A stretch of 64,000 bases of DNA, taken from positions 44,644 to 108,643 of the forward strand of contig CAZHJZ010000001.1 in the NCBI GenBank assembly GCA_964532495.1, read 5' to 3'. This DNA comes from an uncultured Candidatus Saccharibacteria bacterium. GTDB taxonomy: Bacteria; Patescibacteriota; Minisyncoccia; Phycocordibacterales; UBA9973. The notes beneath the pieces are model-generated. The model saw only the letters and a program-made list of their open reading frames with translations, was not told the origin of the DNA and ran no database searches. Of the stretch, positions 37,238 to 54,893 are shown in pieces. Both the position numbers and the translations under genes were made by a program. Every line of letters starts with the position of its first letter. The stretch's first letter is position 1.

Positions 37238-40200
37238 TTATTCTAAAATCTGTTTCAATAAATCTTCAGGAACTTCTTTTGTTTTTTTACCTGCAGGTAT
37301 CTTGGTACCATGCTGAACATCTTCTTTTGTTGCTTCCAATATCTTTTCTTTTTCCAGCCGCTCCGCTTCTTCTTTTTGTTCTATTTCTTGTTCAGCCTTG
37401 ATTCGCGCCTCTTCTTCCCGTTTCTTCGCATTCAGAAGTTCTTGCGCTTCCACTTCCTTACGGCGCAGTTCTTCTTTCAATTCTTCTTCTTGCCGCTTTG
37501 CTTTCAAACGCTCTTCTTCCTGCTTTGCCTGAAGTTCTGCGAGTTCGCGCTTTCTGGCTTCGTCGATTTCCATAAGCCGTTTCTTCTCAGCTTCAACTTC
37601 AGCTAAAGCTTTGATACGGGCTTCTTCTTGTTCAGCCAATCTCTTTTTCTCTGCTTCTACTTCGCGCTCCATTTTTTCTTTCAGTTCCTGAAGCTTTCGC
37701 TCTTCTTCTTTTTGCTTCGCAATAAGAGCTTGCTTCATTTCTTCATCTTTCCGCTGTTTCTCTTCAAGCTCGCGCTTTTCTTGTTCTTGTTTTTGCTTTT
37801 CTTTTTCCAGCCGCTCCGCTTCTTCTTTTTCTTTTTCCGCCTGCAATCGAGCTTCAGATTCAAGTTTCTCTAGAGCGGCCTTTTTTGCGGCATCGGCGTC
37901 GGTGAGCGCATCCTGAGGAGGCAGTATAGTAGAGCCTGTATTCTGAGCTTGCGGCTGCGGTGGAATATTTATCGTGATATGCACATCTGGAGATGGTTGT
38001 GGTGTTTCCGGAGGCTTCGCTTCGCCCATGGCCAAAGAAATGGCATCTTTGAGCATATTTTGGCGTTCTGGCTGAGCTTCTTTAGTAGGAGTTATGAATT
38101 GCGAATTTGTTTTATTCTTAAGGCTATCGAGCGAAAGTCCTGCTTTCTGAGGTTCCGGAGCAGCATTATTTTCTTGAGCCTGTTCTTGTGAAGCAACAGG
38201 ACGTTGGGGCTGAGAACTTCTCATGACACCACCTAAAGCGTCTTTCAACAGACTCTGTAATGCTCCAGTATCAGGCATCTTGCGCTCTTTACGTGCAATA
38301 GGCGCTCGTACTGCCCTCGGTTGCGGCAAAGACACATCAGTTGACGAAGAACCTGTTGTGCGAGATGGTGCGCCAGCAGGCTGCGGTCGAGGAGCTTGCG
38401 GCGGCACATCTCGAATATCCGCTCTAATCATTCCTTGCGGAGGCATAGTCGGATCGGGTCTGCTATTTGAAACGCGCGGAGGCATTGTAGGCGCAGGACG
38501 AGGAGCTTGAGGTGCCATCGGTCGCGGTGATGGAGATGGTGAAGAAACAGCGGCTGGTGTAGACACTGGCTCAGTTGTAGCTCGAGGAGTTGCGGCAGGC
38601 TGAGTAGCTGGTGCTGGGCGAGGAGTGAATGATGAAGGCGTAGGCGTTCCAGGTCGCGGAGTATATGCAGGACGTGGCGTGTATGCGGGTCGATCATTTC
38701 GAGGCGGAGCTGCTGAGCGAGTTTCTTCCTTAAATTCAATACCCAGACTTGCGAGTGCGTTGTATGAAATATTATCCTTTCGTTCTTTTGGCGGACGGAA
38801 TCCAGCTCCCGCTTCTATTTCACCGTTTTTAATCTTGAAGAGACATTCTTTACAGTAAATTGGACGGCCTTCTTCGGGCTCAAAAGGAACATAAATGGAT
38901 TTGCCGCAGTTTGAACATGTCGCTTTGAATTTTCCTTCTGTTTCTTCTCCATCAGGTCGCGTCTGTCCAGGCACGGTAGAACTCCATTTCTGAATTTCAG
39001 CTTCAACTTCGCTTCGTCGGCGGGTAAAGTTATTTCGCGAAGTCTCAATAACACTATTACGAATATCATCAGATGTCTGCACATTTACTGGCGGAAGCGT
39101 TTTAGCGGAAAACGGACGCGAAGTAACACCGTCCACCATGAGCTTGTTATAGATATGATAGTTTGGCAGGTTGACGAAATCTTCAACAGTAAATTCTGGT
39201 TCAAATTCTTTTTCGAGAGCATCGGCATCATCGGCGCCGACACGGAAAATAATCATCGTACCAACGTTACCGAACACGGCGTCTTTCACTGTTTTTGAAT
39301 CAGCAGTTTCGAGCTGTGCGATGTATTGGTGAGCGATGATCAAGCACAAACGGTATTTACGCGCTTCAGAAAGAATTGAAGCAAACGAGTCAGTAACAAA
39401 GTTTTGGAATTCGTCCACATACAAGTAAAAGTCTTCACGCTGGTTTTCAGGAATACGAACACGCTCCATGGCAGAAAGCTGGAGCTTGGTGATCAACATA
39501 CCTCCAAGGAGCGCAGAGTTGTCTTCACCGATACGTCCCTTTGACACGTTCACCAAGAAGATCTTCTTGTTGTTCATGATATCAAAGATGTTGATCGTTG
39601 ATCGTGTTTGTCCAACCACGTTACGCACAATGTTTGACGACAAAAATTGTCCGACTTTGTTTTGAATCGGAGCGATAGCTTCGTTACGGAATTGGTCACG
39701 CCATGCTTCGTATTCGTGCACCCAAAAGGCTTTCACCACTGGGTCTTTCAAATTGTTGATGATGTACTGGCGGTAGTCTTTGTCCACCAACATACGAGGA
39801 ATACCCAACAGCGTTGTGTCGGGCGTATCGAGCAACGCCAAGATGGTGTTGTTCAAGATGTATTCCATTCGAGATGACCAGGCATTGGCCCAGATTTTGG
39901 TGAAGATTCCCATCAAACCGGATGCAACCAAGTGCTTGTATCTTGGATCGTCGAGCTGCAAAACGTTAAATCCGATGTTGTGATCAGTGTCAGCCGGGTT
40001 AAAGTAAATAACATCCCCTGCTCGTTCTGGCGGGATTGTCTCCAATATTTTCTCAACCAGTTCTCCGTGCGGGTCGACAACACAGACACCTTCACCTTGG
40101 TGAATGTTCTGGATGATCATGTTTTCAAGCATTACGGATTTACCGGTACCGGATTTACCGAGCACATACATGTGCTGGCGTCGGTCTTTTCGCTTGATGC

Positions 40201-40273
40201 CGAAAATTTGATCGGTACCTCGGAAGTTCGTCTTCGCGAAGTACGTTATATCTTTGTTGAATGGAAAATCCAT
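37238..40273 (-). CDS. VirD4/TraG/TraD-like (T4CP-like) P-loop ATPase fused to a zinc ribbon, a Pro-rich linker and a long E/K coiled-coil tail
   Basis: Walker A YVLGKSGTGKSV, Walker B FYLYVDEFQNF, and IIAHQYIAQL. A C4 ribbon CSNCGKSIYVPFEPEEGRPIYCKEC follows at about residue 470, then RPAYTPRPAYTPRPGTP... and an ERLEKEK-type coiled coil of about 330 aa. 1011 aa. Confidence 0.65.
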   Translation of the reverse strand: MDFPFNKDITYFAKTNFRGTDQIFGIKRKDRRQHMYVLGKSGTGKSVMLENMIIQNIHQGEGVCVVDPHGELVEKILETIPPERAGDVIYFNPADTDHNIGFNVLQLDDPRYKHLVASGLMGIFTKIWANAWSSRMEYILNNTILALLDTPDTTLLGIPRMLVDKDYRQYIINNLKDPVVKAFWVHEYEAWRDQFRNEAIAPIQNKVGQFLSSNIVRNVVGQTRSTINIFDIMNNKKIFLVNVSKGRIGEDNSALLGGMLITKLQLSAMERVRIPENQREDFYLYVDEFQNFVTDSFASILSEARKYRLCLIIAHQYIAQLETADSKTVKDAVFGNVGTMIIFRVGADDADALEKEFEPEFTVEDFVNLPNYHIYNKLMVDGVTSRPFSAKTLPPVNVQTSDDIRNSVIETSRNNFTRRRSEVEAEIQKWSSTVPGQTRPDGEETEGKFKATCSNCGKSIYVPFEPEEGRPIYCKECLFKIKNGEIEAGAGFRPPKERKDNISYNALASLGIEFKEETRSAAPPRNDRPAYTPRPAYTPRPGTPTPSSFTPRPAPATQPAATPRATTEPVSTPAAVSSPSPSPRPMAPQAPRPAPTMPPRVSNSRPDPTMPPQGMIRADIRDVPPQAPRPQPAGAPSRTTGSSSTDVSLPQPRAVRAPIARKERKMPDTGALQSLLKDALGGVMRSSQPQRPVASQEQAQENNAAPEPQKAGLSLDSLKNKTNSQFITPTKEAQPERQNMLKDAISLAMGEAKPPETPQPSPDVHITINIPPQPQAQNTGSTILPPQDALTDADAAKKAALEKLESEARLQAEKEKEEAERLEKEKQKQEQEKRELEEKQRKDEEMKQALIAKQKEEERKLQELKEKMEREVEAEKKRLAEQEEARIKALAEVEAEKKRLMEIDEARKRELAELQAKQEEERLKAKRQEEELKEELRRKEVEAQELLNAKKREEEARIKAEQEIEQKEEAERLEKEKILEATKEDVQHGTKIPAGKKTKEVPEDLLKQILE

Positions 40274-40415
40274 CTGGTTGGTATTTTAAGCAACAGCCCA
40301 ATAGCGGGCTAAGCTCCCACTAGTATATCAAGTAATAAAAAAATAAACAAAAAATGCTTTGTTTACAAGGTTTGACTAAATAGAACGGTCACGGTACATT
40401 GAAGAAAAACTACGC

Positions 40416-40759: not shown

Positions 40760-40791
40760 ATCCTCCGGAACCCACCCGGTGGATTTTTTTA
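40760..40791 (+). terminator. rho-independent terminator after 40416..40757 (also abuts the stop of the last Cys-rich gene)
   Basis: ATCCtCCGG-aacccac-CCGGTGGAT followed by TTTTTTT. Confidence 0.6.
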
Positions 40792-42444
40792 TACGAATGC
40801 TTGGTTGTAACAGGTGTCGCAATATAAAATTTCTGGACGGTCAGGAGAGTAAGATGTTTGAATGGGAGTTGAGCAATTGGAGCAGGTACGACTAAACAAC
40901 ATGTTTGGGCCGCGCGCCGCGAAGCGGCGCGCGTGCCTGCAATCAGGACAAAGATGCGGCAACGGGATTTCCAACCGCTTATAAAACGAAAACTCATTCG
41001 GAATGATGCGATAATTCTTGGTGCAAGATTCGCAAGCAAAAATTTCCTTTGCTAAATCACTGTCGGTTTCTCCGATAGCATCAGGCATTTCCGACCACTG
41101 CTTCGTTTCTTTTCCATAAGTACCGCGCGGCGTATCTTCCCACTTAAAACCTTGGGCAAGCGCTTCTTCTTTAGAAAGAGGAAACTGTTCCTGAGTCGCT
41201 GATTCGTTGTATCCAAAACACGAAATCTGAGCTGGGAAAAACTGGCCGTATTCCCCCGTCTCTTTCATTTGCGCAACGATCTCACCCCTCAATTGCTCAT
41301 ATGTTTCTTTATCATACTGCTTATTCAAAATACAATAATCTTTTTTACGTAAACCTGCACAACCAAAAATGTAGTTTGAATTGAAACAATTCATTGCGTA
41401 CTCGGCAAACGTGGAACTCCAAACCTGGGCGCAGCAAACATAGTTGGCAACGTCGATGCCAGCGTTAATTGAATTGTAGATCATGCTGGCATTTCGTCCG
41501 GCAGTAGAAACGTCCATGCAATCCTTGGCATTTCGCCACACATGTTCGGCATAGGAGCAATCCTCTGCATCATAACAGTGAAAACATTCCTTGCAGTTCT
41601 TTGCATGCTTCATGTAGTTGCCTGAAGAATTCATCGTATTTACAATCTCTGCATACTTTCTCGGCTGAGTCAGTAAAAATTCATTGAAAGCAGCACGAAA
41701 GGCCTCCAATCCAGAGGCGGTATCAAGGCGCATCTCCTGCACCTTTGCAAAATAATCTTCCTTCGAATACGCCTGATTAAAAATATAATATTGCTGCTGG
41801 CGTAAATTCACGCACCCCAAACAATCCGAGCAGCCCTTGCAGTCGATCAGAAAGGCGCTTTCGCGGCAATCATGGCAGCCTTTTGAATATTTCAATTTAT
41901 ATGAGTTGTAGCAATCGTCGCATTCGTAACAAAGCTCGCATTTGGAAGCGAACGATGTATCAATAACATCGCGGCATTCCTGGATCCAAAATGAATGAAT
42001 GGAATCTTCATTGTTCGAGCTTTCAATAATGAAGTAGCAATTTTTGTTGTCGGCGGAAATATTAATGTATTCGCTACCAGGACTGCGAACGTAAATCAAA
42101 GCAACCTTTGGTATCACTGTATACAATTCTTCAAACTGCTCCATAAATGGTCGTGAAGGGTCGTATTCCCGCGCATACTCTATGCCATCCCAATCATCAG
42201 CAAACCAACATTCGTAACACCAAACCGTATACGGCTTATTCGGTGAATACATGGAAACAACATCCTTTTTGCATTTGTCGCACGCGCGCTTGTAAAAAAC
42301 ACGCTCGTTGCGAAAACTGAGGCGCAACTGGGCACGGCAGATTGGACAGAGATTGGGAGGAATAACACCTATTTTTTCATAAAATGAAGTGTCATTCTCT
42401 GTCACTGTAAAGCTAGCGGTACATTTGTCGCAGGTTTTTTGCAT
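40789..42444 (-). CDS. cysteine-rich zinc-ribbon protein, array paralog 1 (last gene of the operon)
   Basis: 551 aa. N-terminal ribbon C-x2-C...FYEKIGVIPPNLCPICR, repeated C-x2-C clusters, the YYIFNQAYSKEDY motif, the C-terminal ribbon CESCTKNYRIIPNEFSFYKRLEIPLPHLCPDCRHARR, and the end ...YCDTCYNQAFV. Confidence 0.7.
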   Translation of the reverse strand: MQKTCDKCTASFTVTENDTSFYEKIGVIPPNLCPICRAQLRLSFRNERVFYKRACDKCKKDVVSMYSPNKPYTVWCYECWFADDWDGIEYAREYDPSRPFMEQFEELYTVIPKVALIYVRSPGSEYINISADNKNCYFIIESSNNEDSIHSFWIQECRDVIDTSFASKCELCYECDDCYNSYKLKYSKGCHDCRESAFLIDCKGCSDCLGCVNLRQQQYYIFNQAYSKEDYFAKVQEMRLDTASGLEAFRAAFNEFLLTQPRKYAEIVNTMNSSGNYMKHAKNCKECFHCYDAEDCSYAEHVWRNAKDCMDVSTAGRNASMIYNSINAGIDVANYVCCAQVWSSTFAEYAMNCFNSNYIFGCAGLRKKDYCILNKQYDKETYEQLRGEIVAQMKETGEYGQFFPAQISCFGYNESATQEQFPLSKEEALAQGFKWEDTPRGTYGKETKQWSEMPDAIGETDSDLAKEIFACESCTKNYRIIPNEFSFYKRLEIPLPHLCPDCRHARRFAARGPNMLFSRTCSNCSTPIQTSYSPDRPEILYCDTCYNQAFV

Positions 42445-42453
42445 GTATGAGTA

Positions 42454-44151
42454 TTATACTACTTCTTTTTGATAACAGTCTTCGCAATAAATCGGTCGCG
42501 GCTCCTTGTCGGTAAAGAACGTCTCAAAGGTATTTGCACACCGACTATCATGTCCGTGGGAATCTTGCCCACAATCACACTGACGAGAAACGAGATCATA
42601 CCCACCCCTCATATTTTGGCGCCTCATATGACGACAGAAGAAACATTCAGTTGGAATTGGGACTGCTAATCTTCGATAGAGCAAGAGCTCGTCAGGCAGA
42701 ATGCGGTAATTTCGCCCGCAGCTTTCGCAGGCCAAAATTTCTTTTAGAATTTCATCTGTAACATCATGTATAGAATTTGGAACTTGGTCTTGAGAAATAG
42801 TTTCCTTCCCTTTCGTCTGCTGAATTTCGTCTTGCCATCTATAACCTTGAGCCAATGCGTCTTCTCGATTGAACTGTAATTCCCAATTAGCTCGTGTTTC
42901 ATTTATGCCGAATGGCGAAAGAGAGGACGGGAAAAATTCTCCATACTCTCCACGAATTTTCATATCTTCAATTATTTTCTTTGAGAGTTCCTGATATTCC
43001 TCTTTTGAGTATCGCTTGTTCAAAATAACATACTCTCCTTTTTTTACACTTGTACAGCCAAGAATGTTATTGCATCCATGGCAGTCAAACGAATATGAAG
43101 CGAAGGTATTTTTCCAGCATTCAATTGTAGAGAGGCTTCTCGATGACTGATCTGGCGTAATGCACTCATATGCAAGCTCAGTTTCGCCGCCGACTTCGCA
43201 GTCATAACACATTTTGTATGTCACGCCATTATGTACATATTTTGAATCTTCTGAAAATGAGGCAAACGATGAAGACTTGGTATTTTTGCCGCGAATAATA
43301 TCTGAGCCAGTACACGCGACGCTGCTTTGCAGCTCAGCGAATTTCCGAGGATAGGGCGCAACCCATTCAGTAAATTCCTTTCGTGCTCGTTCATAGCCCG
43401 ATCGTGTATGGAGCTGATATGACTCTAAAATGTGCTGATATTCTTCTTTTGAATATTGCTGATTTTTGAAATAATATTTTTTGTTTCGCAGGCCGCTAGA
43501 CATAAAACAATCTTGCGAGCCGCGACAGTCATAGCAAAGAACACAATTGATGCATGATGTGCACCAATATACGCTTCTGCAGTTAGAAACTCCATTAGCG
43601 GCGACACCATCATACAGATATTGCGATTCCTCGGTAATAATCAATGTATCTGACATGTCTTTTCCCGCTGCGAGCGAAACTGAGTTAAATACATTTTCAA
43701 CTCTCCAAGCAATGAAAACCATAGCGCAGTTTTTTGCAAAAGCCACATCGTTCGTATAGAGACAGTTAATGCTTGCAATATCGTTGTCGTTTACGATTCC
43801 AAGTACTGGAGTCTTATGATTAAGCTCCACTACCTGTTCAATAAAAGAGCGCGTCGGATCATACTCAACGCCATAACTATACGGATCCCAATTATCGCTA
43901 TGAAAACATTTTGGACAAAGCACGGTAAAACCGCTATTCGGCGCATAGATGGAAATAAAATTCTTTTCGCAAAGCGAACACTGGCGCGAATAGAGGTTGA
44001 AATCATTTCTCCACGACAAACGCCGAATACGGCGGCACCGCGGACAAAGCGTCGGAGCTGGAACGTCAATCTTCTCATAAAAGCCTAAATCGTCAGCTTC
44101 GATTACGAAGGCAGTTGAGCAGTTTTTGCATTGTTTGGTTTCTGGGTTCAT
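42454..44151 (-). CDS. cysteine-rich zinc-ribbon protein, array paralog 2
   Basis: 565 aa with the same architecture. The C-terminus is ...YCEDCYQKEVV. There is a 9-nt gap to paralog 1. Confidence 0.7.
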   Translation of the reverse strand: MNPETKQCKNCSTAFVIEADDLGFYEKIDVPAPTLCPRCRRIRRLSWRNDFNLYSRQCSLCEKNFISIYAPNSGFTVLCPKCFHSDNWDPYSYGVEYDPTRSFIEQVVELNHKTPVLGIVNDNDIASINCLYTNDVAFAKNCAMVFIAWRVENVFNSVSLAAGKDMSDTLIITEESQYLYDGVAANGVSNCRSVYWCTSCINCVLCYDCRGSQDCFMSSGLRNKKYYFKNQQYSKEEYQHILESYQLHTRSGYERARKEFTEWVAPYPRKFAELQSSVACTGSDIIRGKNTKSSSFASFSEDSKYVHNGVTYKMCYDCEVGGETELAYECITPDQSSRSLSTIECWKNTFASYSFDCHGCNNILGCTSVKKGEYVILNKRYSKEEYQELSKKIIEDMKIRGEYGEFFPSSLSPFGINETRANWELQFNREDALAQGYRWQDEIQQTKGKETISQDQVPNSIHDVTDEILKEILACESCGRNYRILPDELLLYRRLAVPIPTECFFCRHMRRQNMRGGYDLVSRQCDCGQDSHGHDSRCANTFETFFTDKEPRPIYCEDCYQKEVV

Positions 44152-45906
44152 CTAGTTAGTTTCCTTTTGATAACAACTTTCACAATATACCATTTCTGGC
44201 CGTTCGGGAGCATACGAACTCTTGAACTGATTCGGGCAATCCCCAACATGGTCATGCAATCCTGCAAGATCGGGTCGCGCAGTGTCGGCTGAAGCGCGAC
44301 CCTTTTGACACATGCATTCACGCAGCCAAAGTTGCGGCGGATTAACAAACTTGAACCGATCAGTAAATCGACACATATGGCACTTTCTCGGGAGCGGCAA
44401 CTTCATGTTCTTATAAAATTGAAGCTCAAGTGGAATAATACGATATGCTTTACTACAATCAAGGCATTCAATAACTTCTTTCAATATTGAATCACCTACA
44501 TCTTTACTGTCATCTGGAAGGTCAGAAGCGGTGATTGTAGCCTTATACTCCGCTTGAACTGGCTCTCTCCATACAAAACCCAGCTCTTCTGCCTGGCTGG
44601 GCAGAAGAGGGTAAAAATCCTGAGCCATGCTTTCATTATAAGCATACGGTGAAAGTTCTGCAGGAAAAAATTCTCCGTATGTGTATGCTCTGCCAAGCTT
44701 ATCCATGTATGGCATTTCATTCATATGAGTAATTATCTTCTCGCGCAAAATTTCATATTCTTCCTTTGTATATTGCTTATTGAAAATACAGTATTGTTTT
44801 TTATAAAGGCCGACACAACCAAAACAATTAGTTACTCCATAAGAGAAAGCGCAGTACTCGACATCTCGCACGTCTCCCCAGCAGTTATAAGAAAACTTAA
44901 TATTGTAAGCGCCCAAACCGCATGTGACGCATTCATACATATTGTCGGCACGATCACCCCAAATTGTGTAATCGTATGCATTACTAGCTTTGTACTGCAT
45001 ATCCTGACAATAACGCAAATTCTCGCTTTGGCGGACTGAATACGAATCAGTAACATTCTTTGAGTCAAAGACGCGTTCGCCAGTAGAAGCTACAGTACGA
45101 AGCGTGTGATTATATTTTACTGGAAACTTCAGCCAGAAATCATGCGCTGTTTTTAACACGTCAGTTAGTACTGCATGAGAAGAAAGATTGTATTGTGCAA
45201 CCTTGCGATCATACTCTTCTTTGCTGTATGGCTCATTAAAAAAGTAGTTCGACTTCTTGGTTAAATTCACGCAGCCGAAGCAATTAGTGCAGCCGCGCAA
45301 GCCTTTTGAAAACCAGACATCAACACAGCTATCGCAATCGAGCGAATAGAAAGTGCGATAGCTTTTATCAGTCATGACAATTTCATAGCATAATTCATCT
45401 TCTGTTCCTTCATAGCTATCGAGCGTATCCTTCACATGATTCATCTTGCGCGCGTACGCGCAATTTTCCATATAATCACAGTTAAAACAAAGGTAGCAGT
45501 TTTTTGCTTCGCTTATTTCATTGCAGTACTCAGAATTCACCATGTTATATACAGAACGTGCAGCAAGGGGCGCTCGAGCAAGCAAGTCCTTGAATTGCTT
45601 AAAAAATGGTTTTGAGAAATCATAATCGACACCTGTGGCAAGCTTATCCCATTCATCGCCGTACCAAAATGCATTTTCATATGTGACAACAGAAGCTAGA
45701 GGAGAAAAGCCGGAAAAAATATCAGTTTGAGTATGCGAATCTTTGCGCCTAAAAAGTACTTTCTCGTTACGATATTGGAAGCGCCTAATCATTCGGCACT
45801 CAGGGCATAATGTTGGAGCAGGAACTTTCATTTTTTCATAAAAAGAAAAATCATCAGGCTCGATGTTGAAATCAGTTTTGCAGTTTTGGCAGTTTCTAGT
45901 TTCCAT
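44152..45906 (-). CDS. cysteine-rich zinc-ribbon protein, array paralog 3
   Basis: The ORF track extends to 45999, but the conserved start METRNCQNCKTDF lies at 45906, 5 nt after the paralog-4 stop. The stop of this gene abuts the paralog-2 ATG (TAGATG). Confidence 0.7.
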   Translation of the reverse strand: METRNCQNCKTDFNIEPDDFSFYEKMKVPAPTLCPECRMIRRFQYRNEKVLFRRKDSHTQTDIFSGFSPLASVVTYENAFWYGDEWDKLATGVDYDFSKPFFKQFKDLLARAPLAARSVYNMVNSEYCNEISEAKNCYLCFNCDYMENCAYARKMNHVKDTLDSYEGTEDELCYEIVMTDKSYRTFYSLDCDSCVDVWFSKGLRGCTNCFGCVNLTKKSNYFFNEPYSKEEYDRKVAQYNLSSHAVLTDVLKTAHDFWLKFPVKYNHTLRTVASTGERVFDSKNVTDSYSVRQSENLRYCQDMQYKASNAYDYTIWGDRADNMYECVTCGLGAYNIKFSYNCWGDVRDVEYCAFSYGVTNCFGCVGLYKKQYCIFNKQYTKEEYEILREKIITHMNEMPYMDKLGRAYTYGEFFPAELSPYAYNESMAQDFYPLLPSQAEELGFVWREPVQAEYKATITASDLPDDSKDVGDSILKEVIECLDCSKAYRIIPLELQFYKNMKLPLPRKCHMCRFTDRFKFVNPPQLWLRECMCQKGRASADTARPDLAGLHDHVGDCPNQFKSSYAPERPEMVYCESCYQKETN

Positions 45907-45911
45907 AATTA

Positions 45912-47669
45912 CTATAGTACTTCTTTCTGATAACATCCTTCGCAATAAATCTTCTCCACTCGCTCCGGTGCATAAGTTGTCTGAAACTCGTTCGCGCATG
46001 TGCCCGAGTGATCATGTGACTGAATGTCGCACATACAGGTACGCTGGTAGAGCTTCATCGGATTTCGCTGCTTGAGACGGTTATAGTGGCGACAGTTTGG
46101 ACAATAGACAGGCAATGGCACATTCATTTTATGATATAGATCAAATTCCTCAGACATGATTCGGAAAGCAGTTGTGCATTGTGAAATTTCACTTCCCTTG
46201 TTGCGGCATTCTATGATTTCTTTGGTAATTGAAGCGTCAGCTGTTTTGGAACCATCTGGAATCATTTCATTGGCAATCGAAATAGTGTAATTGCGTTCAT
46301 CCCGATCAAACCAAGTAAACCCTTGAGCCAGCGCGTCCTCTTTTGAAAGCGGAAAATATTCCTGTGCCACAGTTTCGTTATACGCAAACGGTGAAAGATT
46401 GTAAGGGAAAAATTCACCATACGTAAATGTTCTTCCTTTCGCATCGATATATGGCATTTCGTTCATATGAGCAATAATTTTCGGGATCAACGCCTCGTAT
46501 TCCTCTTTTGTATACTGCTTATTCAAAATACAATATTGCTTGCTTCGCAATCCGTGACAGCCAAAGAGATGGGATGAACCATGACAGTTGATCGAATACC
46601 GAACATCAAAACAATGATAGACTACGCCGGTAAAATACAGGTCTTGGGATTGAAGAGCAGAATCAAATGTATCGTACAATCGCTCGCCTTTTATACCTAC
46701 TCCTGGCCCTGAGTCATATGAATCCTTGATATCATATCCGCCCCATACCAAGTATTTGCCGTCTTCGCAGCCGATCGGCGTGCCGACGATATCAAACGAA
46801 TATTTTAGATTCTTCGAGTTCTCGATATTTTCGCCAGTACAATTGACCGACTTATACATATTTGCAAAACGATGAATCTGACTTTCATGGAACTTCTGTG
46901 CCTTTGCTTTGTATTCTTCTATAGTGGAATGAGAAGTGAGATCTATGGTACTTAAAAATTCCAGATACTGTTCGCGAGTATATTGTTCATTGAAAACACA
47001 ATAGCTTTTGCCGCGTAGGTTTGTACAGCCAAAGCAATTCTGACAGTTTACGCATGATTCCAGAAAATATGAATCAGCGCACTGTTTGCAGTTTTTGGAA
47101 TATTGAACTTTAAAATTATTATGCGAGTTTACAAGCTCGTAACAAAGTTCATTATGATTGGCAATGTACATTTCCGCAGATTGTTTGTTTTCCGTCACGC
47201 GGTTGCCGTACATAGTGTCTTCGTTACTATGAGAAGCAGAAAGCATGAAGCCGTTTTTATCCCCTTCGGCCACATTGCAGTACTCGCAGTTAACCATGTT
47301 AGTCACTGAAAGATTAATAAGCGGAATACGCTCATACAATTCTTTGAATTGCTGAAAAAAGGGTTTTGAGAAATCATAGTCCTTTCCATATTCAATCGGA
47401 TCCCATGAGTCGCCCCACCACGTGCGATCATCATAAACAGTATACGCAGTTCCCGGGCGATGAATAGAAACGATCTGTTCGCCCAATTTCCCTGGGGCAT
47501 TATTTTCGCGACTATAGAGCGTCCGCTCATTACGGAACATCATGCGTCGCTGAAATCGGCACATAGGGCAAAATGTCGGCGGCGGAACATTAATCTTGCC
47601 GTAAAAAGCAAAATCTTCCTCTACTATGAGAAATGATTTCTTGCAGTTTTGGCAGTTCCGGGTTTCCAT
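45912..47669 (-). CDS. cysteine-rich zinc-ribbon protein, array paralog 4
   Basis: The ORF track extends to 47795, but the conserved start METRNCQNCKKSF lies at 47669, 7 nt after the paralog-5 stop. Confidence 0.7.
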   Translation of the reverse strand: METRNCQNCKKSFLIVEEDFAFYGKINVPPPTFCPMCRFQRRMMFRNERTLYSRENNAPGKLGEQIVSIHRPGTAYTVYDDRTWWGDSWDPIEYGKDYDFSKPFFQQFKELYERIPLINLSVTNMVNCEYCNVAEGDKNGFMLSASHSNEDTMYGNRVTENKQSAEMYIANHNELCYELVNSHNNFKVQYSKNCKQCADSYFLESCVNCQNCFGCTNLRGKSYCVFNEQYTREQYLEFLSTIDLTSHSTIEEYKAKAQKFHESQIHRFANMYKSVNCTGENIENSKNLKYSFDIVGTPIGCEDGKYLVWGGYDIKDSYDSGPGVGIKGERLYDTFDSALQSQDLYFTGVVYHCFDVRYSINCHGSSHLFGCHGLRSKQYCILNKQYTKEEYEALIPKIIAHMNEMPYIDAKGRTFTYGEFFPYNLSPFAYNETVAQEYFPLSKEDALAQGFTWFDRDERNYTISIANEMIPDGSKTADASITKEIIECRNKGSEISQCTTAFRIMSEEFDLYHKMNVPLPVYCPNCRHYNRLKQRNPMKLYQRTCMCDIQSHDHSGTCANEFQTTYAPERVEKIYCEGCYQKEVL

Positions 47670-47676
47670 AGGGTTA

Positions 47677-49392
47677 CTATAGCACTTCTTTTTGATAACA
47701 ATCTTCGCAATACACTTTCTCGATACGAAGAGGAGAATACGTAGTTTCAAAGCGATTTTCGCACTCGCCTTCATGGTTATGCCCCGAGATAGCACAGTTA
47801 CACTTCCTATTGTACAGCTCTGGTAGATTTACCATACTAAATCTTCGTAAGTGACGGCAGTTGAAACAATTCCTTGGCAGCGCGATTCCAAACCGTCGAA
47901 GCATGCCTAATTCTTCAGGAACAATACGATACACTTTGCCGCACGAAGCGCAGGAAAGTATTTCTTTTACAATATCATCTGCAACGTCAGAGATTGAATC
48001 AGGCAAATCAACGGATTTAATCGTCGCCGTAAAATTACCAGGAATAACTTCTCTGTATTTCCAGCCTTGCTGCTTGGTTGCCTCCTCGCTTAACGGCTTA
48101 TAATCCTGGGCGATGGTTTCATTATAGGTATAGGGCGAAAGCTCGATTGGGAAAAATTCGCCATAGCCATATGATCTTCCAGCACTGTCTATGTATTTCA
48201 TCTCATTCATCTGTGCGCGAATCTTTGGAACAAGCTCTTCGTATTCTTCCTTAGAATATTGCTTATTGAAAATACAGTACTGCTTTTTGCGCAGGCCAAC
48301 ACAGCCGAATAAATTGCTTGAGTTATGGCAATTGATGCAATATTCCATATTGTACGAATTCCAAACGGCGATACAAAAGAGCAACACGGCTGCCGTGTCT
48401 CCGCAGTCTACTGATTCATATAACCGTTCGGCGTTAACTCCGATGCCATACCCGTCATACAGATCGTACGAATTTACTAATGTATTTATTATATATCTCG
48501 AATCTTTTACTCCATCAAAGACGCTGAATCCATATTTAACATTGAAGCAGCTTCGGAGATTGTTTCCCGTAGACTCTTCAGAATTTATAAGATTGGCGTA
48601 TCGATGAATAGCGGCATTTTTTATTTCTGAGAATCTTTTCATCGCTTTCACAATATTGGAGTATGCAGCGAGATTGTATTCTTTTATTTTCTCTGAATAC
48701 TCAGCTTTTGTATATTGAACATTCTCAAATACATATTGCTTATTTCGTAAGTTTGAAGATAAGAAGCAATTATCGCAATTTTTACAGTCAAAAAGAAAGG
48801 CACAATCCGTACAAGCAGTGACTTGATCTGAAAAAAATACTCTATTGGACTTGAGGAGAGATACTGATTCATAGCAGTATTCTGAATCAGTAATCGCATA
48901 GCAATCCATGAGATTTTTTACTTTATTGGCGAGAACAGAATACAGAATATCTTCGGCATCCCAGGATGCAGAAACGAGATAGCAATTCTTGGCCTCCCCA
49001 ACATGATTGCCATATTCTGTATTAATAGACTTACCAATAAAGACGGCTGCCATAGGGGTGGCATTTAACAGTTCCCTATATTGTATGAAAAACGGTCGAG
49101 AAAAATCATACTCTCGCGCAGAAATACTTGTATCGCATTCATCTCCCCACCAAAAATCTCTCTCCACAATATTCATCCCTTCCTCGGGAGAAAAACAAGA
49201 AATGATAGATTTGCCGCTGGCATTTGAAGTAACCCTATGCAAAGTTCGCTCATTTCTGTACGCGAACCTTCTGATCATGCGGCACTGAATGCAGAAAGTC
49301 GGAAAAGGTACCTGAACCTTAGCGTAAAAATCCTGATCGGTTTGATCAATACTGAATTCAGTTTTACAGTTTTGGCAGGTTCGGGTTTCCAT
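47677..49392 (-). CDS. cysteine-rich zinc-ribbon protein, array paralog 5
   Basis: Conserved start METRTCQNCKTEF at 49392, 2 nt after the paralog-6 stop. The ORF track extends to 49419 via a TTG start. Confidence 0.7.
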   Translation of the reverse strand: METRTCQNCKTEFSIDQTDQDFYAKVQVPFPTFCIQCRMIRRFAYRNERTLHRVTSNASGKSIISCFSPEEGMNIVERDFWWGDECDTSISAREYDFSRPFFIQYRELLNATPMAAVFIGKSINTEYGNHVGEAKNCYLVSASWDAEDILYSVLANKVKNLMDCYAITDSEYCYESVSLLKSNRVFFSDQVTACTDCAFLFDCKNCDNCFLSSNLRNKQYVFENVQYTKAEYSEKIKEYNLAAYSNIVKAMKRFSEIKNAAIHRYANLINSEESTGNNLRSCFNVKYGFSVFDGVKDSRYIINTLVNSYDLYDGYGIGVNAERLYESVDCGDTAAVLLFCIAVWNSYNMEYCINCHNSSNLFGCVGLRKKQYCIFNKQYSKEEYEELVPKIRAQMNEMKYIDSAGRSYGYGEFFPIELSPYTYNETIAQDYKPLSEEATKQQGWKYREVIPGNFTATIKSVDLPDSISDVADDIVKEILSCASCGKVYRIVPEELGMLRRFGIALPRNCFNCRHLRRFSMVNLPELYNRKCNCAISGHNHEGECENRFETTYSPLRIEKVYCEDCYQKEVL

Positions 49393-49394
49393 GA

Positions 49395-51137
49395 TTACAG
49401 TACCTCTTTTTGGTAACAACTCTCACAATACACTATTTCCGATCGATCAGGCGAATAGCTGCTTTCGAATATATTTGGGCAATGTGCCGCGTGCCCGTGA
49501 GACTCTTGCGCACACATGCATGCACGTGGCCAGACCTTGAGCGGATTGCGCTTTGCCAAGCGTTCATAGTGACGGCAATTAATACAGAGTCTTGGGAGCG
49601 GAATTCCCATTCGCTTGTACATTTGAAGCTCAGATGGAATAACGCGAAACGCATTTGTGCACTGATGATTGCACGTTCCCGCATGCAAGCATGAAATTAT
49701 TTCATTCGTAATAGTGTCTTCAATATCGTGTATCGAATCAGGAACCGTTAAAACATCCTTGGTAGGCATATATGATTTATCTTCAAGTTTTCTCCACACA
49801 AATCCCCTCTTTTCAATCTCCTCTTTTGTCATTGGAAAATATTCCTGGGCAATTGATTGATTGTATGGGAAAAATGACATTTCTTCTGGAAAAAACTCTC
49901 CATACGTATACGTACGGCCGCCTTTGTCGACATATGGCATTTCTGTCATATGCGCGATAATTTTCGGCAATAATTCAAAATATTCTTCTTTAGTGTACTG
50001 CTTGTTCAAGATGCAGTATTTTTTATTCTTGATACCCACACAGCCAAAACAATCCGAACAGTTTTTTATAAAATAATTATACTGACAAGAAAAGCTTTCC
50101 CAGATGTTTGCCGAGAAGCAAACATTTTGAACATTGCTGCCAGAGTCCATCAAGTCATAGCTGTTTTCAATATTCACTCCGATGGCATACGCATCATGGA
50201 CGCTCTTCATATTCGTTACGCCGTAGACACAATATTTCAGATCTTCCGCCGGTCCTTCGATATCGAAGCATTCCAGGCAGTTTTTGGCGCCATTCAAATA
50301 ATCACCAGTTGAAGCAACGGTATGGCGCGAATTGGAATATCGGCGCGGATATTTCGCCAGTAGTTCTTGATATTTTTTCTCAAATGCTTCACGGCCTGAA
50401 GCAGTATCGAGATGCAAACGTGTCACTTCTTTTGCATATTCTTCCTGAGTGTATTGAACATTCAAAATCTGGTTCTTGGCGTTTCGAAGGCCGGCGCAGC
50501 CAATGCAATCCTGGCAATTATGGCAGTCATAGCAAAATTTTGATTTGATACATGACTGACAGAGCTGCAACCCATCGCAGTCGTAGCACTGTTCACAATC
50601 CACCATGTTTTGGCATTTTTCATTCTTTCGAGAACCAAGCATGTCAAAACAGTCCCTGTTTTCAATCGAGTGGTAGAGATATGCCGTATCCTCGTTCATG
50701 TCGCTGGCGAAATTCAGATAGCAGTTTTTAGACTGGTACGTAAAATTGCAGTAGTCACTGTTTACATCCTGGAGATTGATGAGCGCCGGTGCCGGAACTG
50801 AATACAAAAGCTCCTTAAATTGCGAGAAGAACGGTTTTGAAAAATCATATTCTTTATGATGATCCATCGCATCCCATTCATCACTCCACCAATATTTCTG
50901 ATCATAGACTGGAAGTTTTAGTTCGGGCGGATACATCATAATGATCATCTCCTCGTGGCCAGGAGCATCGCATTTACGTTTATACAGACTTCGTTCGTTT
51001 CTCCAAGCCAAGCGGCGCTGCAATCGGCAATCCGGACAAAATGTCGGTGAAGGAACATTCAATTTTGTATAAAAATCAAAATCCTCAGATTTGATCTGAA
51101 ATGATTGTGCGCAGTTTTGGCAGTTCTTTGTTTCCAT
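49395..51137 (-). CDS. cysteine-rich zinc-ribbon protein, array paralog 6
   Basis: Conserved start METKNCQNCAQSF at 51137, 2 nt after the paralog-7 stop. The ORF track extends to 51173. Confidence 0.7.
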   Translation of the reverse strand: METKNCQNCAQSFQIKSEDFDFYTKLNVPSPTFCPDCRLQRRLAWRNERSLYKRKCDAPGHEEMIIMMYPPELKLPVYDQKYWWSDEWDAMDHHKEYDFSKPFFSQFKELLYSVPAPALINLQDVNSDYCNFTYQSKNCYLNFASDMNEDTAYLYHSIENRDCFDMLGSRKNEKCQNMVDCEQCYDCDGLQLCQSCIKSKFCYDCHNCQDCIGCAGLRNAKNQILNVQYTQEEYAKEVTRLHLDTASGREAFEKKYQELLAKYPRRYSNSRHTVASTGDYLNGAKNCLECFDIEGPAEDLKYCVYGVTNMKSVHDAYAIGVNIENSYDLMDSGSNVQNVCFSANIWESFSCQYNYFIKNCSDCFGCVGIKNKKYCILNKQYTKEEYFELLPKIIAHMTEMPYVDKGGRTYTYGEFFPEEMSFFPYNQSIAQEYFPMTKEEIEKRGFVWRKLEDKSYMPTKDVLTVPDSIHDIEDTITNEIISCLHAGTCNHQCTNAFRVIPSELQMYKRMGIPLPRLCINCRHYERLAKRNPLKVWPRACMCAQESHGHAAHCPNIFESSYSPDRSEIVYCESCYQKEVL

Positions 51138-51139
51138 AC

Positions 51140-52789
51140 TTATGCAATTTCTTTGAGGTAGCATTCTTCGCACGCTATACGCTTATATCCCCATGCTTTT
51201 GGATAGTAGGTATTAATATCTTTCGAGCAAAAATTACAGGTTGCGGGCACAATCTTGCTTGGGGCCAGTTTCTGCATGCGCTCCTTTGTTCGCACATCGA
51301 AATGCACTCGCGGAATAGCAATATGCATCCGTCTCAAAAATGCTAATTCCTCAGCAGAAATATTGTAGCGCCATCCAGTTACTGGACAAATAAGAGGTTG
51401 TTTGGAAAAACTTTCATCTACATCGTCGATTGAATCAGGAATATCAGCAGTAGGCATTCCCTCAGAAATATTTTCTGCACCTTCATCCCAATATCCACCG
51501 TGCTCTAAAACATATTCCTTTGTAACTTCCGGAAAATAAATTGACGCAGTTGTGAGGTTATACGGAACAAGACCCAAAGAATACGACGGAAAGACGCCAT
51601 ACTCCCCTCGTGCTTTCATATCTTCAATGATTTTTGCTTTTAGCGACTCGTATTCTTCTTTTGAATACTGCTTGTTCAAAATACAATATTTTTTCTTGCG
51701 CAAGCCGACACAACCAAAACAGTATTCGCATTCGAGACAAATATCGCAATATTCCGAGTATCGAGTGCCATCACACCAAATTGAATATTTCAAATCATAT
51801 GCATTGGTACAACAACTATTATTTCCCGATAGCTGAACATCCCAACATCCAGTCTGGTCTATACAATCTTTGTCGTTGCGACCGCGCATGCAGTTTGTGC
51901 AATTTTCAGAATCCTCAATGCTAAAAATATTTACACAGTCATTACAATTGGCCATATAGTTGCCGATTGAATTTTGAGTTTTGAGGCTGAAGTTTTCTCG
52001 GTGAACTACGTTTTCTCTAAGTATCTCAAGGTACCGAGCTTTGCACTTTTCAAGGCCAGCATGTGAACCTAAATCATACTCCTTTAATTTTTCAAAATAA
52101 GCCTCTTTGGTATATTGTTCATTCTCAATGCAGTATGACTTGCCGCGTAGATTCCAGGACATGAAGCAGTTTGTTGAATTACGGCAATCAAAAAGAAAGG
52201 CACTGTCGATGCAGTCCTTGCAGTTGATAGAGAATAATAACTTGCTGCAGTTGAAACAATAGGTGCAGTTATAGCATTGATCGAGATTGAAGACGTGAGA
52301 AATATCTATGGAGTCTTTGCTATCAAATGCACGATAACCATACATGAGATTTTCTCCGCGAACCATCGAGCGACTCAGGTAAGAATTTTTACATTCCCAG
52401 AGATCATCTCCCCAATCTGAATCAACATTCTGCGCTCCAGTCTGATGTGGCCGTGGAACTTTTTCCTGAAGTTCTTTGAGTTGATCGAAAAACGGTCGGT
52501 TAGGATCGTAGTCTTGTCCAAAATCCATTGGATCCCAGGCATCGCTCCACCATTCTTTGGAAGTATAAATCGGATACCGAGCATGTTCAGGTAATATAGT
52601 AATTAATTTTTCTCCAGAAAGATTGGACTTGCGTACTCTAAATTTTCCGAAAGGCCAAAAAGCGAAATGTTGCTTCCATCGGCAATTACGGCAAATGTTC
52701 GGCACTTCCAGGCCGATTTTCTCATACATTCCCATTTCCCTCTCTGTAGTCTGAAACGAAGTGTTGCAGGAAGCGCAGGTCTTACTCAT
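51140..52789 (-). CDS. cysteine-rich protein, divergent array paralog 7 (first gene of the operon)
   Basis: 549 aa. It shares the N-terminal ribbon (CASCNTSF...MYEKIGLEVPNICRNCR), the central Cys clusters and the KKYCILNKQYSKEEYE motif. It lacks the C-terminal ribbon and ends ...ACEECYLKEIA. Confidence 0.7.
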   Translation of the reverse strand: MSKTCASCNTSFQTTEREMGMYEKIGLEVPNICRNCRWKQHFAFWPFGKFRVRKSNLSGEKLITILPEHARYPIYTSKEWWSDAWDPMDFGQDYDPNRPFFDQLKELQEKVPRPHQTGAQNVDSDWGDDLWECKNSYLSRSMVRGENLMYGYRAFDSKDSIDISHVFNLDQCYNCTYCFNCSKLLFSINCKDCIDSAFLFDCRNSTNCFMSWNLRGKSYCIENEQYTKEAYFEKLKEYDLGSHAGLEKCKARYLEILRENVVHRENFSLKTQNSIGNYMANCNDCVNIFSIEDSENCTNCMRGRNDKDCIDQTGCWDVQLSGNNSCCTNAYDLKYSIWCDGTRYSEYCDICLECEYCFGCVGLRKKKYCILNKQYSKEEYESLKAKIIEDMKARGEYGVFPSYSLGLVPYNLTTASIYFPEVTKEYVLEHGGYWDEGAENISEGMPTADIPDSIDDVDESFSKQPLICPVTGWRYNISAEELAFLRRMHIAIPRVHFDVRTKERMQKLAPSKIVPATCNFCSKDINTYYPKAWGYKRIACEECYLKEIA

Positions 52790-52845: not shown

Positions 52846-52874
52846 TTGACTAAAAGTAACAAATATGCTATAAT
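52846..52874 (+). promoter_or_regulatory. consensus sigma70 promoter for 52953..53369, divergent from the operon promoter
   Basis: TTGACT-N17-TATAAT with TGc upstream of the -10 (TGn-extended). Confidence 0.6.
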
Positions 52875-53381: not shown

Positions 53382-53415
53382 AGTGATCCTTCTGCCAAAA
53401 GCGGAGGGATTTTTT
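53382..53415. terminator. hairpin terminator between convergent genes
   Basis: ATCCTTCTGC-caaaa-GCGGAGGGAT (two G-U wobble pairs) followed by TTTTTTAT. Confidence 0.5.
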
Positions 53416-53423: not shown

Positions 53424-54893
53424 CTAGATCAAAGGCTCAGCGGCCTTTTCTTGTTGCGGCGCTGCTGCCTGGGCATCGGAAGATCCGCGGCCAGTGTGGC
53501 TGATAGCTGCTTTTTCTTGGGCACTTCGAATGATAGTGGATTCTTCTTCGGCGATAAGCTTTTTGGCCATATCGGCTGGAATTGAGAATTTGCGTCGTGA
53601 CGCTTCGATAACTTCTTTGCGGTATGAAGGATGCGTTGGCGGCAGCACTTTCAGTGTTTCAGCAGAGAATGGGTCGTATGATTCGCCGTCGATGGTCATT
53701 TTGATATAGAACTCCCCCACACCGAGGTTGATCAAATCTTTGGTATCGAAAATTGGCGCAAATTCAGCTTTGAGCTTGATTGCATCATCACCTCCCAAAC
53801 GGAATGAAATAATTGATCCGACGTTACCGAGCACGGCCTGTTGGACTTTCGGCAAAAGCTGACCGACGTATTGGTGAGCAACTGTCAGGTTGAGTCCGTA
53901 CTTACGAGCTTCTGAAAGAATGTTTTCGAATGTATCAGTAACGACGTTCTGGAACTCATCCACGTACAAGTAGAAATCATAACGCTTTGAATGATCAAGT
54001 TTTGCACGAGCCATTCCTGCTTGCTTGATCTTGGTCAAGAACATAGCTCCGAAGAATGACGAGTTTTCTTCACCGATCTTACCTTTTGAAAGGTTAATCA
54101 TAAGAATTTTTTTCTCGTTCATCACTTTTTCAATGTCGATGCGGTTTTCTTTTTGTCCGAAAATGTTGCGCAACATTGGATCTGACAAGAACTGTCCGAG
54201 CTTGTTAACGAGCGGGATGATAGCGTCGGTATCGAACTTTTCAGACCAGTCCGCGAATTCGATCGCCCAGAAGCGCTTTACCATGTCGTCTTCGATATAT
54301 TCAACCACTTTTTGACGGTAGTTACGGTCGGTCAGCATTGAAATCATTCCACGCATCGTTGCGTATGGGTAGTCCAAAAGCGCGAGTGTGGTAAATCGAA
54401 AGACGTGCTCAAGACGCGGAGTCCAGTTGGAACCGAATTGCTTTTCCAACACTTCAATCAAGCCTTGGGTCAATTGGTGCTTGAAAGTTGGGTCAACGTT
54501 TGCGAGCGGGTTAAACGAAGCTGGATATTCAATGTCGCCCGGATCAATAATACAGACATCTTCAACGCGTTCCTTTGGGATAAAGTCCAAAATGTCATCA
54601 ATAAATTCTCCGTGCGGGTCAATGACGCACACACCATGACCCTGAGCGATGTCCTGGCGCACCATAAGTTCCTGAAGTTTGGATTTACCGACTCCGGACT
54701 TTCCGATGATGTAGAGGTGACGGCGGCGGTCAACGCGCTTGATACCAAAAACATAGCGCTTTTCTTCCAAAGCGGCTACATAGTTGGTTCGTCCAATAAA
54801 CGACACGTCTTCGGTCGTAACCTTGCCAAACTCAGGAAGTTCAGGAGGCGGCGGAGCGTATTTGATTAATTGGATTTTATTAAGCCGTGCCAT
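53424..54893 (-). CDS. VirD4/TraG/TraD-like (T4CP-like) P-loop ATPase, short paralog of 37238..40273
   Basis: Walker A YIIGKSGVGKSK, Walker B FYLYVDEFQNV, and LTVAHQYVGQL. It is collinear with the N-terminal 420 aa of the 1011-aa protein. 489 aa, with no fused tail. Confidence 0.7.
   Translation of the reverse strand: MARLNKIQLIKYAPPPPELPEFGKVTTEDVSFIGRTNYVAALEEKRYVFGIKRVDRRRHLYIIGKSGVGKSKLQELMVRQDIAQGHGVCVIDPHGEFIDDILDFIPKERVEDVCIIDPGDIEYPASFNPLANVDPTFKHQLTQGLIEVLEKQFGSNWTPRLEHVFRFTTLALLDYPYATMRGMISMLTDRNYRQKVVEYIEDDMVKRFWAIEFADWSEKFDTDAIIPLVNKLGQFLSDPMLRNIFGQKENRIDIEKVMNEKKILMINLSKGKIGEENSSFFGAMFLTKIKQAGMARAKLDHSKRYDFYLYVDEFQNVVTDTFENILSEARKYGLNLTVAHQYVGQLLPKVQQAVLGNVGSIISFRLGGDDAIKLKAEFAPIFDTKDLINLGVGEFYIKMTIDGESYDPFSAETLKVLPPTHPSYRKEVIEASRRKFSIPADMAKKLIAEEESTIIRSAQEKAAISHTGRGSSDAQAAAPQQEKAAEPLI

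Follow-up and report, generated by a model that had tools for sequence, protein, structure and literature searches.

A conserved chromosomal module of Patescibacteria pairs two soluble ATPases of the type IV coupling protein family with an array of cysteine-rich proteins

Type IV coupling proteins (T4CPs) include TraD of the F plasmid, whose C-terminal tail binds TraM, and DotL of Legionella, which is part of a type IV coupling complex. Patescibacteria represent a large share of bacterial diversity and their interaction with host cells is poorly understood; their type IV secretion system (T4SS) is essential for epibiotic growth in the one genetically tractable strain, with neither coupling protein nor substrate assigned to the system so far. 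These bacteria are already known to encode about two orphan VirD4 homologues: PMC12102498 (Microb Genom 2025) counted 5,713 VirD4-type homologues, spread over 2,918 of the 3,035 Patescibacteria genomes surveyed (96%), with only 148 of the homologues near virB4, VirB4 itself in 2,417 genomes (80%) and relaxases in 103, and its authors raise exaptation of the VirD4 homologues as a possibility. In this work, we describe a locus in a 64-kb stretch of contig CAZHJZ010000001.1 (64,000 nucleotides, the window hereafter), in which a short and a long ATPase of this kind, ATPs and ATPL, flank seven paralogous cysteine-rich (Cys-rich) genes. The arrangement recurs in dozens of ultra-small Patescibacteria genomes, and therefore constitutes a real, although uncharacterized, cellular module. 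This module of Paceibacteria-type Patescibacteria is chromosomal and vertically inherited, and its core consists of two ancient paralogues of the conjugative coupling-protein (VirD4/TrwB) family which, judging from their sequences, are soluble and retain intact catalytic motifs. It is uncoupled from conjugation: a relaxase, a neighboring VirB4 and a fused membrane anchor are all missing.

An earlier note on this DNA had interpreted the two flanking proteins as collinear paralogues of coupling-protein type sharing Walker A, Walker B and AHQY[IV][AG]QL motifs and devoid of N-terminal transmembrane (TM) helices, and our results bear out each of these points. Both open reading frames (ORFs) are present at the coordinates given in the note and lie on the minus strand, the three motifs were located exactly in both, and BLASTP aligned residues 8-417 of ATPL with residues 29-437 of ATPs at 191/417 identical positions (46%, E 2e-131). 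The maximum of a 19-residue Kyte-Doolittle hydropathy window was at most 1.03 in either protein, thus no TM helix is predicted. In Pfam searches, both ATPases exceeded the gathering scores of TrwB_AAD_bind (cut-off 20.5 bits; ATPL 58.6, ATPs 30.6) and TraG-D_C (cut-off 22; ATPL 32, ATPs 22.2), as well as that of DUF87, and ATPs also exceeded that of T4SS-DNA_transf (25.7 against 20.1), while the FtsK_SpoIIIE motor domain stayed below threshold for both. A single-protein sequence search of the PDB found nothing; a profile built from both orthologous groups recovered TrwB as the best solved relative (E 8.6e-6), with the hidden Markov model (HMM) alignment spanning Walker A and the region from Walker B to the Q motif. 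Comparison of the ATPases with solved relatives gave 23.6 for the DptH C-domain, 23.1 for TrwB (355 residues aligned), 22.6 for VirB4, 21.4 for DotL, 20.0 for Cag-beta, 19.8 for HerA and 15.5 for FtsK. Both proteins display the P-loop core of the FtsK-HerA superfamily, a Walker A, a DE-type Walker B and the downstream RK and Q motif, in addition to a helical insertion at the position that the all-alpha domain occupies in the nucleotide-binding domain. Searched by tblastn against plasmids, the ATPases matched 347 records, all below 60% identity; among them is an Embleya plasmid protein (29% identity, E 2e-52) annotated as the coupling protein in a T4SS-like locus, whose other genes encode a PrgI-family protein, an ATP-binding protein (candidate VirB4), a replication-relaxation protein and NlpC/P60. 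The T4CP-like assignment is thus sound at the family level, based on the Pfam, TrwB profile, fold and Embleya matches. Canonical T4CP membership fails: neither ATPase has the N-terminal TM anchor, no VirB4 or relaxase was found among all window ORFs of at least 450 aa, and with the NCBIfam equivalog or subfamily models for TraD/VirD4 the best scores were 35-59 bits against cut-offs of 250-650.

The wider family includes anchored members. An exhaustive profile search of the ATPase family yielded 9,172 representatives at E ≤1e-30, and many close relatives carry a conserved domain of about 300-430 residues N-terminal to the ATPase, assigned to DUF8128 in precomputed Pfam annotations, with one or two N-terminal TM helices detected in some of these proteins; a DUF8128-type N-domain is also recognizable in the Embleya conjugative T4CP (E 2e-13). 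Several lineages encode the TM and DUF8128 part as a protein of its own (451-473 aa), from a gene directly 5' of an otherwise soluble ATPase, either upstream of ATPs with a gene for a small TM protein (171-179 aa) in between (loci L079, L080, L092 and L145) or upstream of ATPL (L093 and L126). Fused, split and anchor-less forms are therefore all represented in the family. A lineage-specific block 5' of ATPs (L079, 6928-9956; L145, 977-4367; also L080 and L092) encodes a sigma-region-4-like helix-turn-helix protein (~340 aa), the TM and DUF8128 protein and the small TM protein, and resembles the anchored T4CP architecture divided into separate genes.

Each ATPase matched at least 8000 clusters at E ≤1e-5, from which the 120 best listed were examined; these were at least 80% identical to ATPs and at least 74% identical to ATPL, respectively, and the organism names among the matches listed for both were all Patescibacteria, Paceibacterota, Nomurabacteria or Pacebacteria. 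ATPs and ATPL belong to two distinct orthologous groups, with identities of 77-96% (ATPs) and 72-95% (ATPL) within groups and 41-48% between them, and the catalytic residues are invariant in both. In comparisons with the nearest genomes, dN/dS was 0.02-0.05 at saturated dS. The number of about two VirD4 homologues per genome derived from PMC12102498 fits the ATPs/ATPL pair, and the homologues counted there are almost certainly the same proteins.

The seven Cys-rich genes that the earlier note had described as a same-strand paralogue array between the ATPases were confirmed, in the minus-strand transcription order ATPs, seven Cys-rich genes (40789..52789), ATPL and a lamin-tail-domain (LTD)/PKD protein. 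Since longest-ORF coordinates overshoot four of the genes, starts were corrected to the conserved N-terminus M(E)T(K/R)xCQNC, which results in proteins of 549-585 aa with 5.0-7.1% Cys and 31-44% pairwise identity, encoded with spacings of 0-9 bp. The family comprises more than 7,500 clusters (90% identity) at E ≤1e-5, in which all organism names given among the listed matches belong to the Patescibacteria group and none of the listed matches has a Pfam annotation; NCBIfam and PADLOC scans of the Cys-rich proteins gave no matches either. An AlphaFold2 model of Cys2 (pLDDT 84.9, pTM 0.85) predicts N-terminal zinc ribbons, a two-part beta-solenoid core in which each half closes with C.GC.GLR.K.Y.I.N.QY.KEEY plus a helix, a conserved GEFFP..SPF.YNE segment, and C-terminal zinc ribbons repeating the N-terminal pattern, and no solved structural relative of the model was found. 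The N-termini of three of the seven paralogues resemble zf_Tbcl (PF13451), a resemblance that stays below the gathering score (16.4-19.9 bits against 24). Neither TM helix nor export signal is predicted in the Cys-rich proteins. Binding of nucleic acids is not supported by their charge, the proteins being acidic overall and the terminal ribbons only mildly basic. Array content differs between the window (40789-52789) and locus L001 (1641-11591), although ATPs is 96% identical: the L001 array holds orthologues of Cys1-3 (84-94%), followed by genes 46-60% identical to the window paralogues and by a 92% match to Cys6, which indicates gene turnover or recombination within arrays.

The Cys-rich proteins and ATPL share a zinc-ribbon module. 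A CxxC-x17-CxxC ribbon with exact spacing follows the ATPase domain of ATPL, scoring 46.6 bits with PF23477 (cut-off 27) and 48.5 bits with TIGR04272 (cut-off 36), and directly follows the ATPase in 107/120 of the best listed ATPL orthologues; the same exact spacing is kept in Cys6 and Cys7. This domain has been shown to bind zinc in small proteins of Methanosarcina (PMC12704099). An HMM of the ATPL ribbon recovered the Cys-rich proteins weakly in hmmsearch (11/127 below E 1e-3, best shuffled control 0.21), and the relationship was clearer by profile-profile comparison, with hhalign matching the ribbon to the Cys-rich C-terminus at 89% probability (E 2e-6). Beyond the ribbon, ATPL orthologues carry a low-complexity tail of 155-370 residues, variable in length and sequence, and of 45 inspected orthologue C-termini the majority close with a similar motif, in the typical case EVPEDxLKKxLE. 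At 1011 aa, the window ATPL is longer than all listed orthologues (655-870 aa) owing to a Glu/Lys-rich stretch of ~210 residues, and no 100% match to it was among those returned from the protein database, in which ATPs and Cys2 had exact matches. Conserved terminal motifs are present in ATPs as well, with an xPLI terminus in 119 and YxPPPPxLP near the N-terminus in 105 of the 120 best listed orthologues.

The earlier note had further argued that the arrangement is a functional unit rather than a chance adjacency, and had called for a search of other genomes for the same synteny, which supports that claim. We compared 80 species-representative genome loci anchored on ATPs, taking up to 10 kb of flanking sequence. 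In 51 of them, ATPL lies on the same strand no more than 10 kb away (44 downstream and 7 upstream of ATPs); the remaining 29 are nearly all truncated contigs or loci in which 5-7 Cys-rich genes take up the whole flank. In the 44 downstream loci, the two ATPases are separated by no Cys-rich genes in 15, one in 12, two in 11, three in 5 and five in 1, and overall the count ranges from 0 to at least 7. In a second set of 79 metagenome loci anchored on Cys-rich genes, 15 of the 29 that reach at least 12 kb carry ATPs and/or ATPL, against a rough chance estimate below ~8% for a ~0.8-Mb genome, and a second order, ATPL-Cys(n)-ATPs, is common. Spacings of at most 100 bp were found at 23/60 ATPs-to-Cys, 10/37 Cys-to-ATPL and 7/18 Cys-to-ATPs junctions. 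Subtypes tend to hold their positions: Cys1-type genes come directly after ATPs in 16 loci, at a distance of 22-131 bp, and the place before ATPL is typically taken by a Cys5-type gene, the type that is also the commonest neighbor of both ATPases elsewhere. Furthermore, three Cys-rich genes were found 2.4 kb from a third paralogue, namely an ATPase of DUF8128 type with 39% identity to ATPL. No conserved neighbors upstream of the module were seen among the loci compared. A 101-aa protein, CutA-like by eye, is encoded between the ATPases in L025, L030, L033, L040, L042, L043, L045, L046, L052 and L071, instead of or beside Cys-rich genes, and is followed in all of these except L071 by a cytidylyltransferase-like protein of ~140 aa.

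Table 1. Features of the module and its flanks, in window coordinates; aa positions refer to the encoded protein.
Feature	Coordinates	Strand	Remarks
ATPs, short soluble T4CP-family ATPase, 489 aa	53424..54893	-	ORF and motifs
ATPs N-terminal conserved YAPPPPELP	54834-54860	-	
ATPs Walker A GKSGVGKS	54681-54704	-	aa 64-71
ATPs Walker B DFYLYVDEFQN	53946-53978	-	aa 306-316
ATPs EARKY..L..AHQY[IV][AG]QL motif	53856-53912	-	
ATPs C-terminal EPLI	53427-53438	-	
ORF, 138 aa	52953..53369	+	lipoprotein-like signal peptide (LLLICC); between ATPs and first Cys-rich gene
Cys1, 549 aa	51140..52789	-	most divergent paralogue
Cys2, 580 aa	49395..51137	-	corrected ATG at 51137
Cys3, 571 aa	47677..49392	-	corrected start
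Cys4, 585 aa	45912..47669	-	corrected start
Cys5, ~584 aa	44152..45906	-	from METRNCQNC
Cys6, 565 aa	42454..44151	-	exact CxxC-x17-CxxC at aa 58
Cys7, 551 aa	40789..42444	-	exact CxxC-x17-CxxC at aa 55 and aa 521
ORF, 113 aa	40416..40757	+	promoter-like site 40372-40400; between Cys7 and ATPL
ATPL, whole ORF, 1011 aa	37238..40273	-	
ATPL ATPase domain	38999..40273	-	aa 1-425
ATPL Walker A GKSGTGKS	40136-40159	-	aa 39-46
ATPL Walker B DFYLYVDEFQN	39401-39433	-	aa 281-291
ATPL CxxC-x17-CxxC zinc ribbon	38843..38917	-	aa 453-477; PF23477 and TIGR04272
ATPL low-complexity tail	37238..38776	-	variable sequence
ATPL Pro-rich region	37904-38776	-	aa 500-790
ATPL Glu/Lys-rich region, read as coiled coil	37274-37903	-	aa 791-1000
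ATPL conserved C-terminal VPEDLLKQILE	37241-37273	-	
LTD/PKD surface protein	35745..37208	-	signal peptide and C-terminal TM anchor; 29-bp gap after ATPL
ECF-type sigma factor (34243-34764) and DUF5667 protein (34781-35734)	34243..35734	+	convergent with module

The window is a Patescibacteria (Paceibacteria/Nomurabacteria-like) chromosome. The module is surrounded by genes for LepA, MurJ, an ABC exporter, DivIC, two tRNAs, MreB/MreC, TGT, a class II aminoacyl-tRNA synthetase, UvrB, MetK and YchF, and base composition is unremarkable, with a low and flat GC content of ~0.40-0.48 across the window. The Cys-rich family was found in no plasmids or phage genome records, and viral contigs gave one marginal match. 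A mobile-element origin of the module was therefore rejected, based on its housekeeping context, the flat GC and the absence of the Cys-rich family from these replicons. Two features of the window are unrelated to the module, namely a 535-aa protein with a Zeta-toxin/AAA_33 kinase domain (15373..16980, minus strand) and two adjacent ORFs of 349 and 459 aa with neither Pfam nor NCBIfam match (20106..22512, minus strand). Regarding the records compared, L077 (JAMPXW010000002.1) is titled 'Burkholderiales bacterium' yet carries a Paceibacteria-type module, and many CAY* and CAZ* loci are titled 'uncultured Candidatus Saccharibacteria bacterium' while their proteins match Nomurabacteria and Paceibacterota records; all of these are likely mis-binned or generically named metagenome-assembled genomes.

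Downstream of ATPL, the LTD protein scores 89 bits with the Pfam LTD model and has its hydropathy maximum (2.47) at aa 449, and in most loci its gene comes next after ATPL, with an identity of 25-45%. The LTD-PKD protein is 45% identical to its L003 orthologue, from a locus in which ATPL is 95% identical, and such evolution, much faster than that of its neighbors, fits an exposed protein that faces the host or the environment. The convergent pair encoding an extracytoplasmic function (ECF)-type sigma factor and a DUF5667 protein is syntenic in at least 9 other genomes (L003, L005, L006, L020, L022, L032, L044, L061 and L065); its membership in the module is uncertain, and a role in regulating the module or the surface protein is possible on the basis of this synteny. 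Transcription of the block as a single nine-gene unit is unlikely here: a plus-strand ORF stands in each gap between an ATPase and the array, so in this genome the block probably comprises three transcription units. The 138-aa ORF is preceded by an 11/12 match to a sigma-70 promoter with extended -10 (52846-52874) and followed by a terminator-like hairpin (53385-53411), and the 113-aa ORF may or may not be a real gene. Neither had homologues in the 80 fetched genome loci, and the promoter and terminator scan as a whole did not rise above shuffled expectation.

With the integration of these findings, we tentatively favor, with considerable reservation, an exapted pair of soluble T4CP-type ATPases coupled to a T4SS, with the Cys-rich proteins as clients or adaptors. 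The ATPases would form hexameric rings, separate or mixed, acting as a coupling or receptor motor. Docking would proceed through the short conserved terminal motifs on flexible tails, which are xPLI and YxPPPPxLP for ATPs and, for ATPL, the EVPEDxLKxxLE that closes its long low-complexity tail, with the TM-DUF8128 membrane module either provided in trans or not needed. As clients, the Cys-rich paralogues, which have a CxxC-x17-CxxC-type ribbon in common with ATPL, would serve as cargo or as substrate adaptors. The motor would then hand its clients to an envelope machine, for which the most plausible candidate is the chromosomal monoderm-type T4SS of Patescibacteria, a system that has no coupling protein of its own nearby. 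A more specific version, in which the Cys-rich paralogues are the missing repertoire of cargo or substrate adaptors of this T4SS, recruited by a split, two-paralogue soluble ATPase through the shared zinc ribbon and the terminal docking peptides, we consider unlikely; if true, the locus would hold the substrate-selection apparatus and the first candidate substrates of a machine essential for epibiosis.

Several observations weigh against a role coupled to the T4SS. T4CP homologues are found in more genomes than VirB4 (96% versus 80%), and the homologue of Ca. Southlakia is dispensable for epibiotic growth whereas the T4SS genes are essential, both according to PMC12102498. The Cys-rich orthologues are under strong purifying selection (dN/dS ~0.03-0.04), unlike typical fast-evolving effectors, and the proteins are acidic (pI 5.2-5.7) and predicted to be tightly folded zinc proteins; given this selection and acidic pI, they look like constrained cytoplasmic zinc proteins rather than effectors engaged in an arms race. 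No DUF8128 gene lies within the window, and opposite-strand ORFs part the ATPases from the array. In about a fifth of the well-covered loci, the ATPase pair and the LTD gene occur without Cys-rich genes in the vicinity, the CutA-like and cytidylyltransferase-like genes occupy the ATPs-ATPL interval of other genomes, and solitary Cys-rich genes occur far from any ATPase (L106, L114 and L136). Finally, we infer both the interaction between the ATPases and the Cys-rich proteins and the transport itself.

The main alternative is a housekeeping function independent of the T4SS, in which an exapted cytoplasmic ring ATPase translocates nucleic acid (for example in processing DNA that was captured by the LTD protein and taken up, or in chromosome handling), or else remodels or assembles the Cys-rich beta-solenoid proteins, which in either case would be cofactors remaining in the cytoplasm. 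The genomic excess over VirB4, the exaptation raised by the authors and the Ca. Southlakia result, all from PMC12102498, agree with such a function, as do the near-universal and very strongly conserved ATPases devoid of a TM anchor, the zinc ribbons with basic flanks in ATPL and the Cys-rich proteins, the lack of export signals and purifying selection of the latter, and the membrane-anchored LTD protein conserved beside ATPL. Conversely, the closest characterized relatives are envelope-coupled T4CPs, relatives keep a TM-DUF8128 anchor in fused or split form, the overall acidity of the Cys-rich proteins is atypical for nucleic-acid binders, and the conserved block includes no nuclease, helicase or ComEC-type partner. 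On balance, we regard a housekeeping role as possible but somewhat improbable; were the function indeed independent of the T4SS, the module would clearly show that a conjugation motor has been domesticated to serve as core cellular machinery.

It is also conceivable, though in our judgment quite improbable, that ATPs, ATPL and the LTD gene form the real unit and that the interval is merely permissive for an unrelated, tandem-duplicating family. The variable number of Cys-rich genes, the unrelated genes in the interval (including the plus-strand ORFs of the window), the solitary copies, and the different array content of L001 at 96% ATPs identity are what such mere linkage would lead one to expect, but the association extends to three ATPase paralogues and two gene orders, operon-like spacing is frequent, the Cys1-type and Cys5-type genes keep their places after ATPs and before ATPL, and the zinc-ribbon module is common to ATPL and the Cys-rich proteins. 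An anti-phage or anti-plasmid defense system of HerA, DptH or MADS type, with the Cys-rich array as sensors or effectors, was suggested by the DptH and mad8 matches (in PADLOC, DndH at E 4e-4, partial HerA matches and mad8 at E 1.7e-14, with no partner genes) and is highly improbable, being rejected because of the conservation and the near-universal, vertical distribution of the module (77-96% identity, dN/dS 0.02-0.05), the opposite of patchy defense islands with fast turnover, alongside the lack of nuclease, Sir2, methylase or dnd genes in the conserved block, the unremarkable base composition, and a Cys-rich family missing from plasmids and phage genome records, with one marginal viral-contig match.

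Whichever function holds, the module is present in essentially every Paceibacteria-type genome sampled, with a conservation that rivals that of core housekeeping genes, and it pairs two motors derived from coupling proteins with a large family that lacks a Pfam model and a solved structural relative. Compared with TrwB, VirD4 and TraD, the likeness of ATPs and ATPL lies in the P-loop core with its Walker A, DE-type Walker B and RK...Q motifs and in the helical insertion at the all-alpha-domain position, with TrwB ranking first among solved structures in the sequence-profile search and near the top by fold, and the homology to the actinobacterial T4CP of a T4SS locus is real (29% identity, E 2e-52). 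The differences are the absence of an N-terminal TM anchor and of any VirB4, relaxase or T4SS gene in the window, the chromosomal, vertically inherited state as two fixed paralogues, and the zinc ribbon and 500-residue low-complexity tail added in ATPL. The Cys-rich proteins showed no sequence relationship to IcmS, IcmW, DotN or TraM, and the parallel with the DotL complex and with F-plasmid TraD-TraM would be architectural only. With TIGR04272 and PF23477 proteins, ATPL shares a ribbon passing both curated cut-offs, which here is fused to a T4CP-type ATPase and recurs as degenerate copies at the ends of the 550-600-residue beta-solenoid Cys-rich proteins. Unlike the DptH/DndH C-domain and HerA ring ATPases, the module has no dnd/dpt or NurA partners, its PADLOC and NCBIfam matches are weak and partial, and its conservation differs from that of defense genes.

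The closest description remains that of PMC12102498, whose homologues agree with ATPs and ATPL in number (about two per genome, in 96% of genomes), in being rarely near virB4 and in the suggested exaptation. In the passages of that report considered here, only HMM matches are counted, the two orthologous groups are not separated, the missing anchor is unmentioned, and the Cys-rich array, the shared zinc ribbon, the LTD neighbor and the split DUF8128 genes are undescribed; no description of the module was found in the literature on Cys-rich arrays, lamin-tail-domain links or treble-clef proteins of Patescibacteria. Also not found in the literature searched were the resolution into two soluble orthologous groups, the Cys-rich family itself, the shared zinc ribbon, the docking peptides, the LTD neighbor and the split DUF8128 genes, and the synteny of this family with three paralogous ATPases appears undescribed. 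Taken together, the synteny, the ribbon, the docking peptides and the split DUF8128 genes make an experimentally addressable system out of what had been a tally of possibly exapted T4CP homologues.

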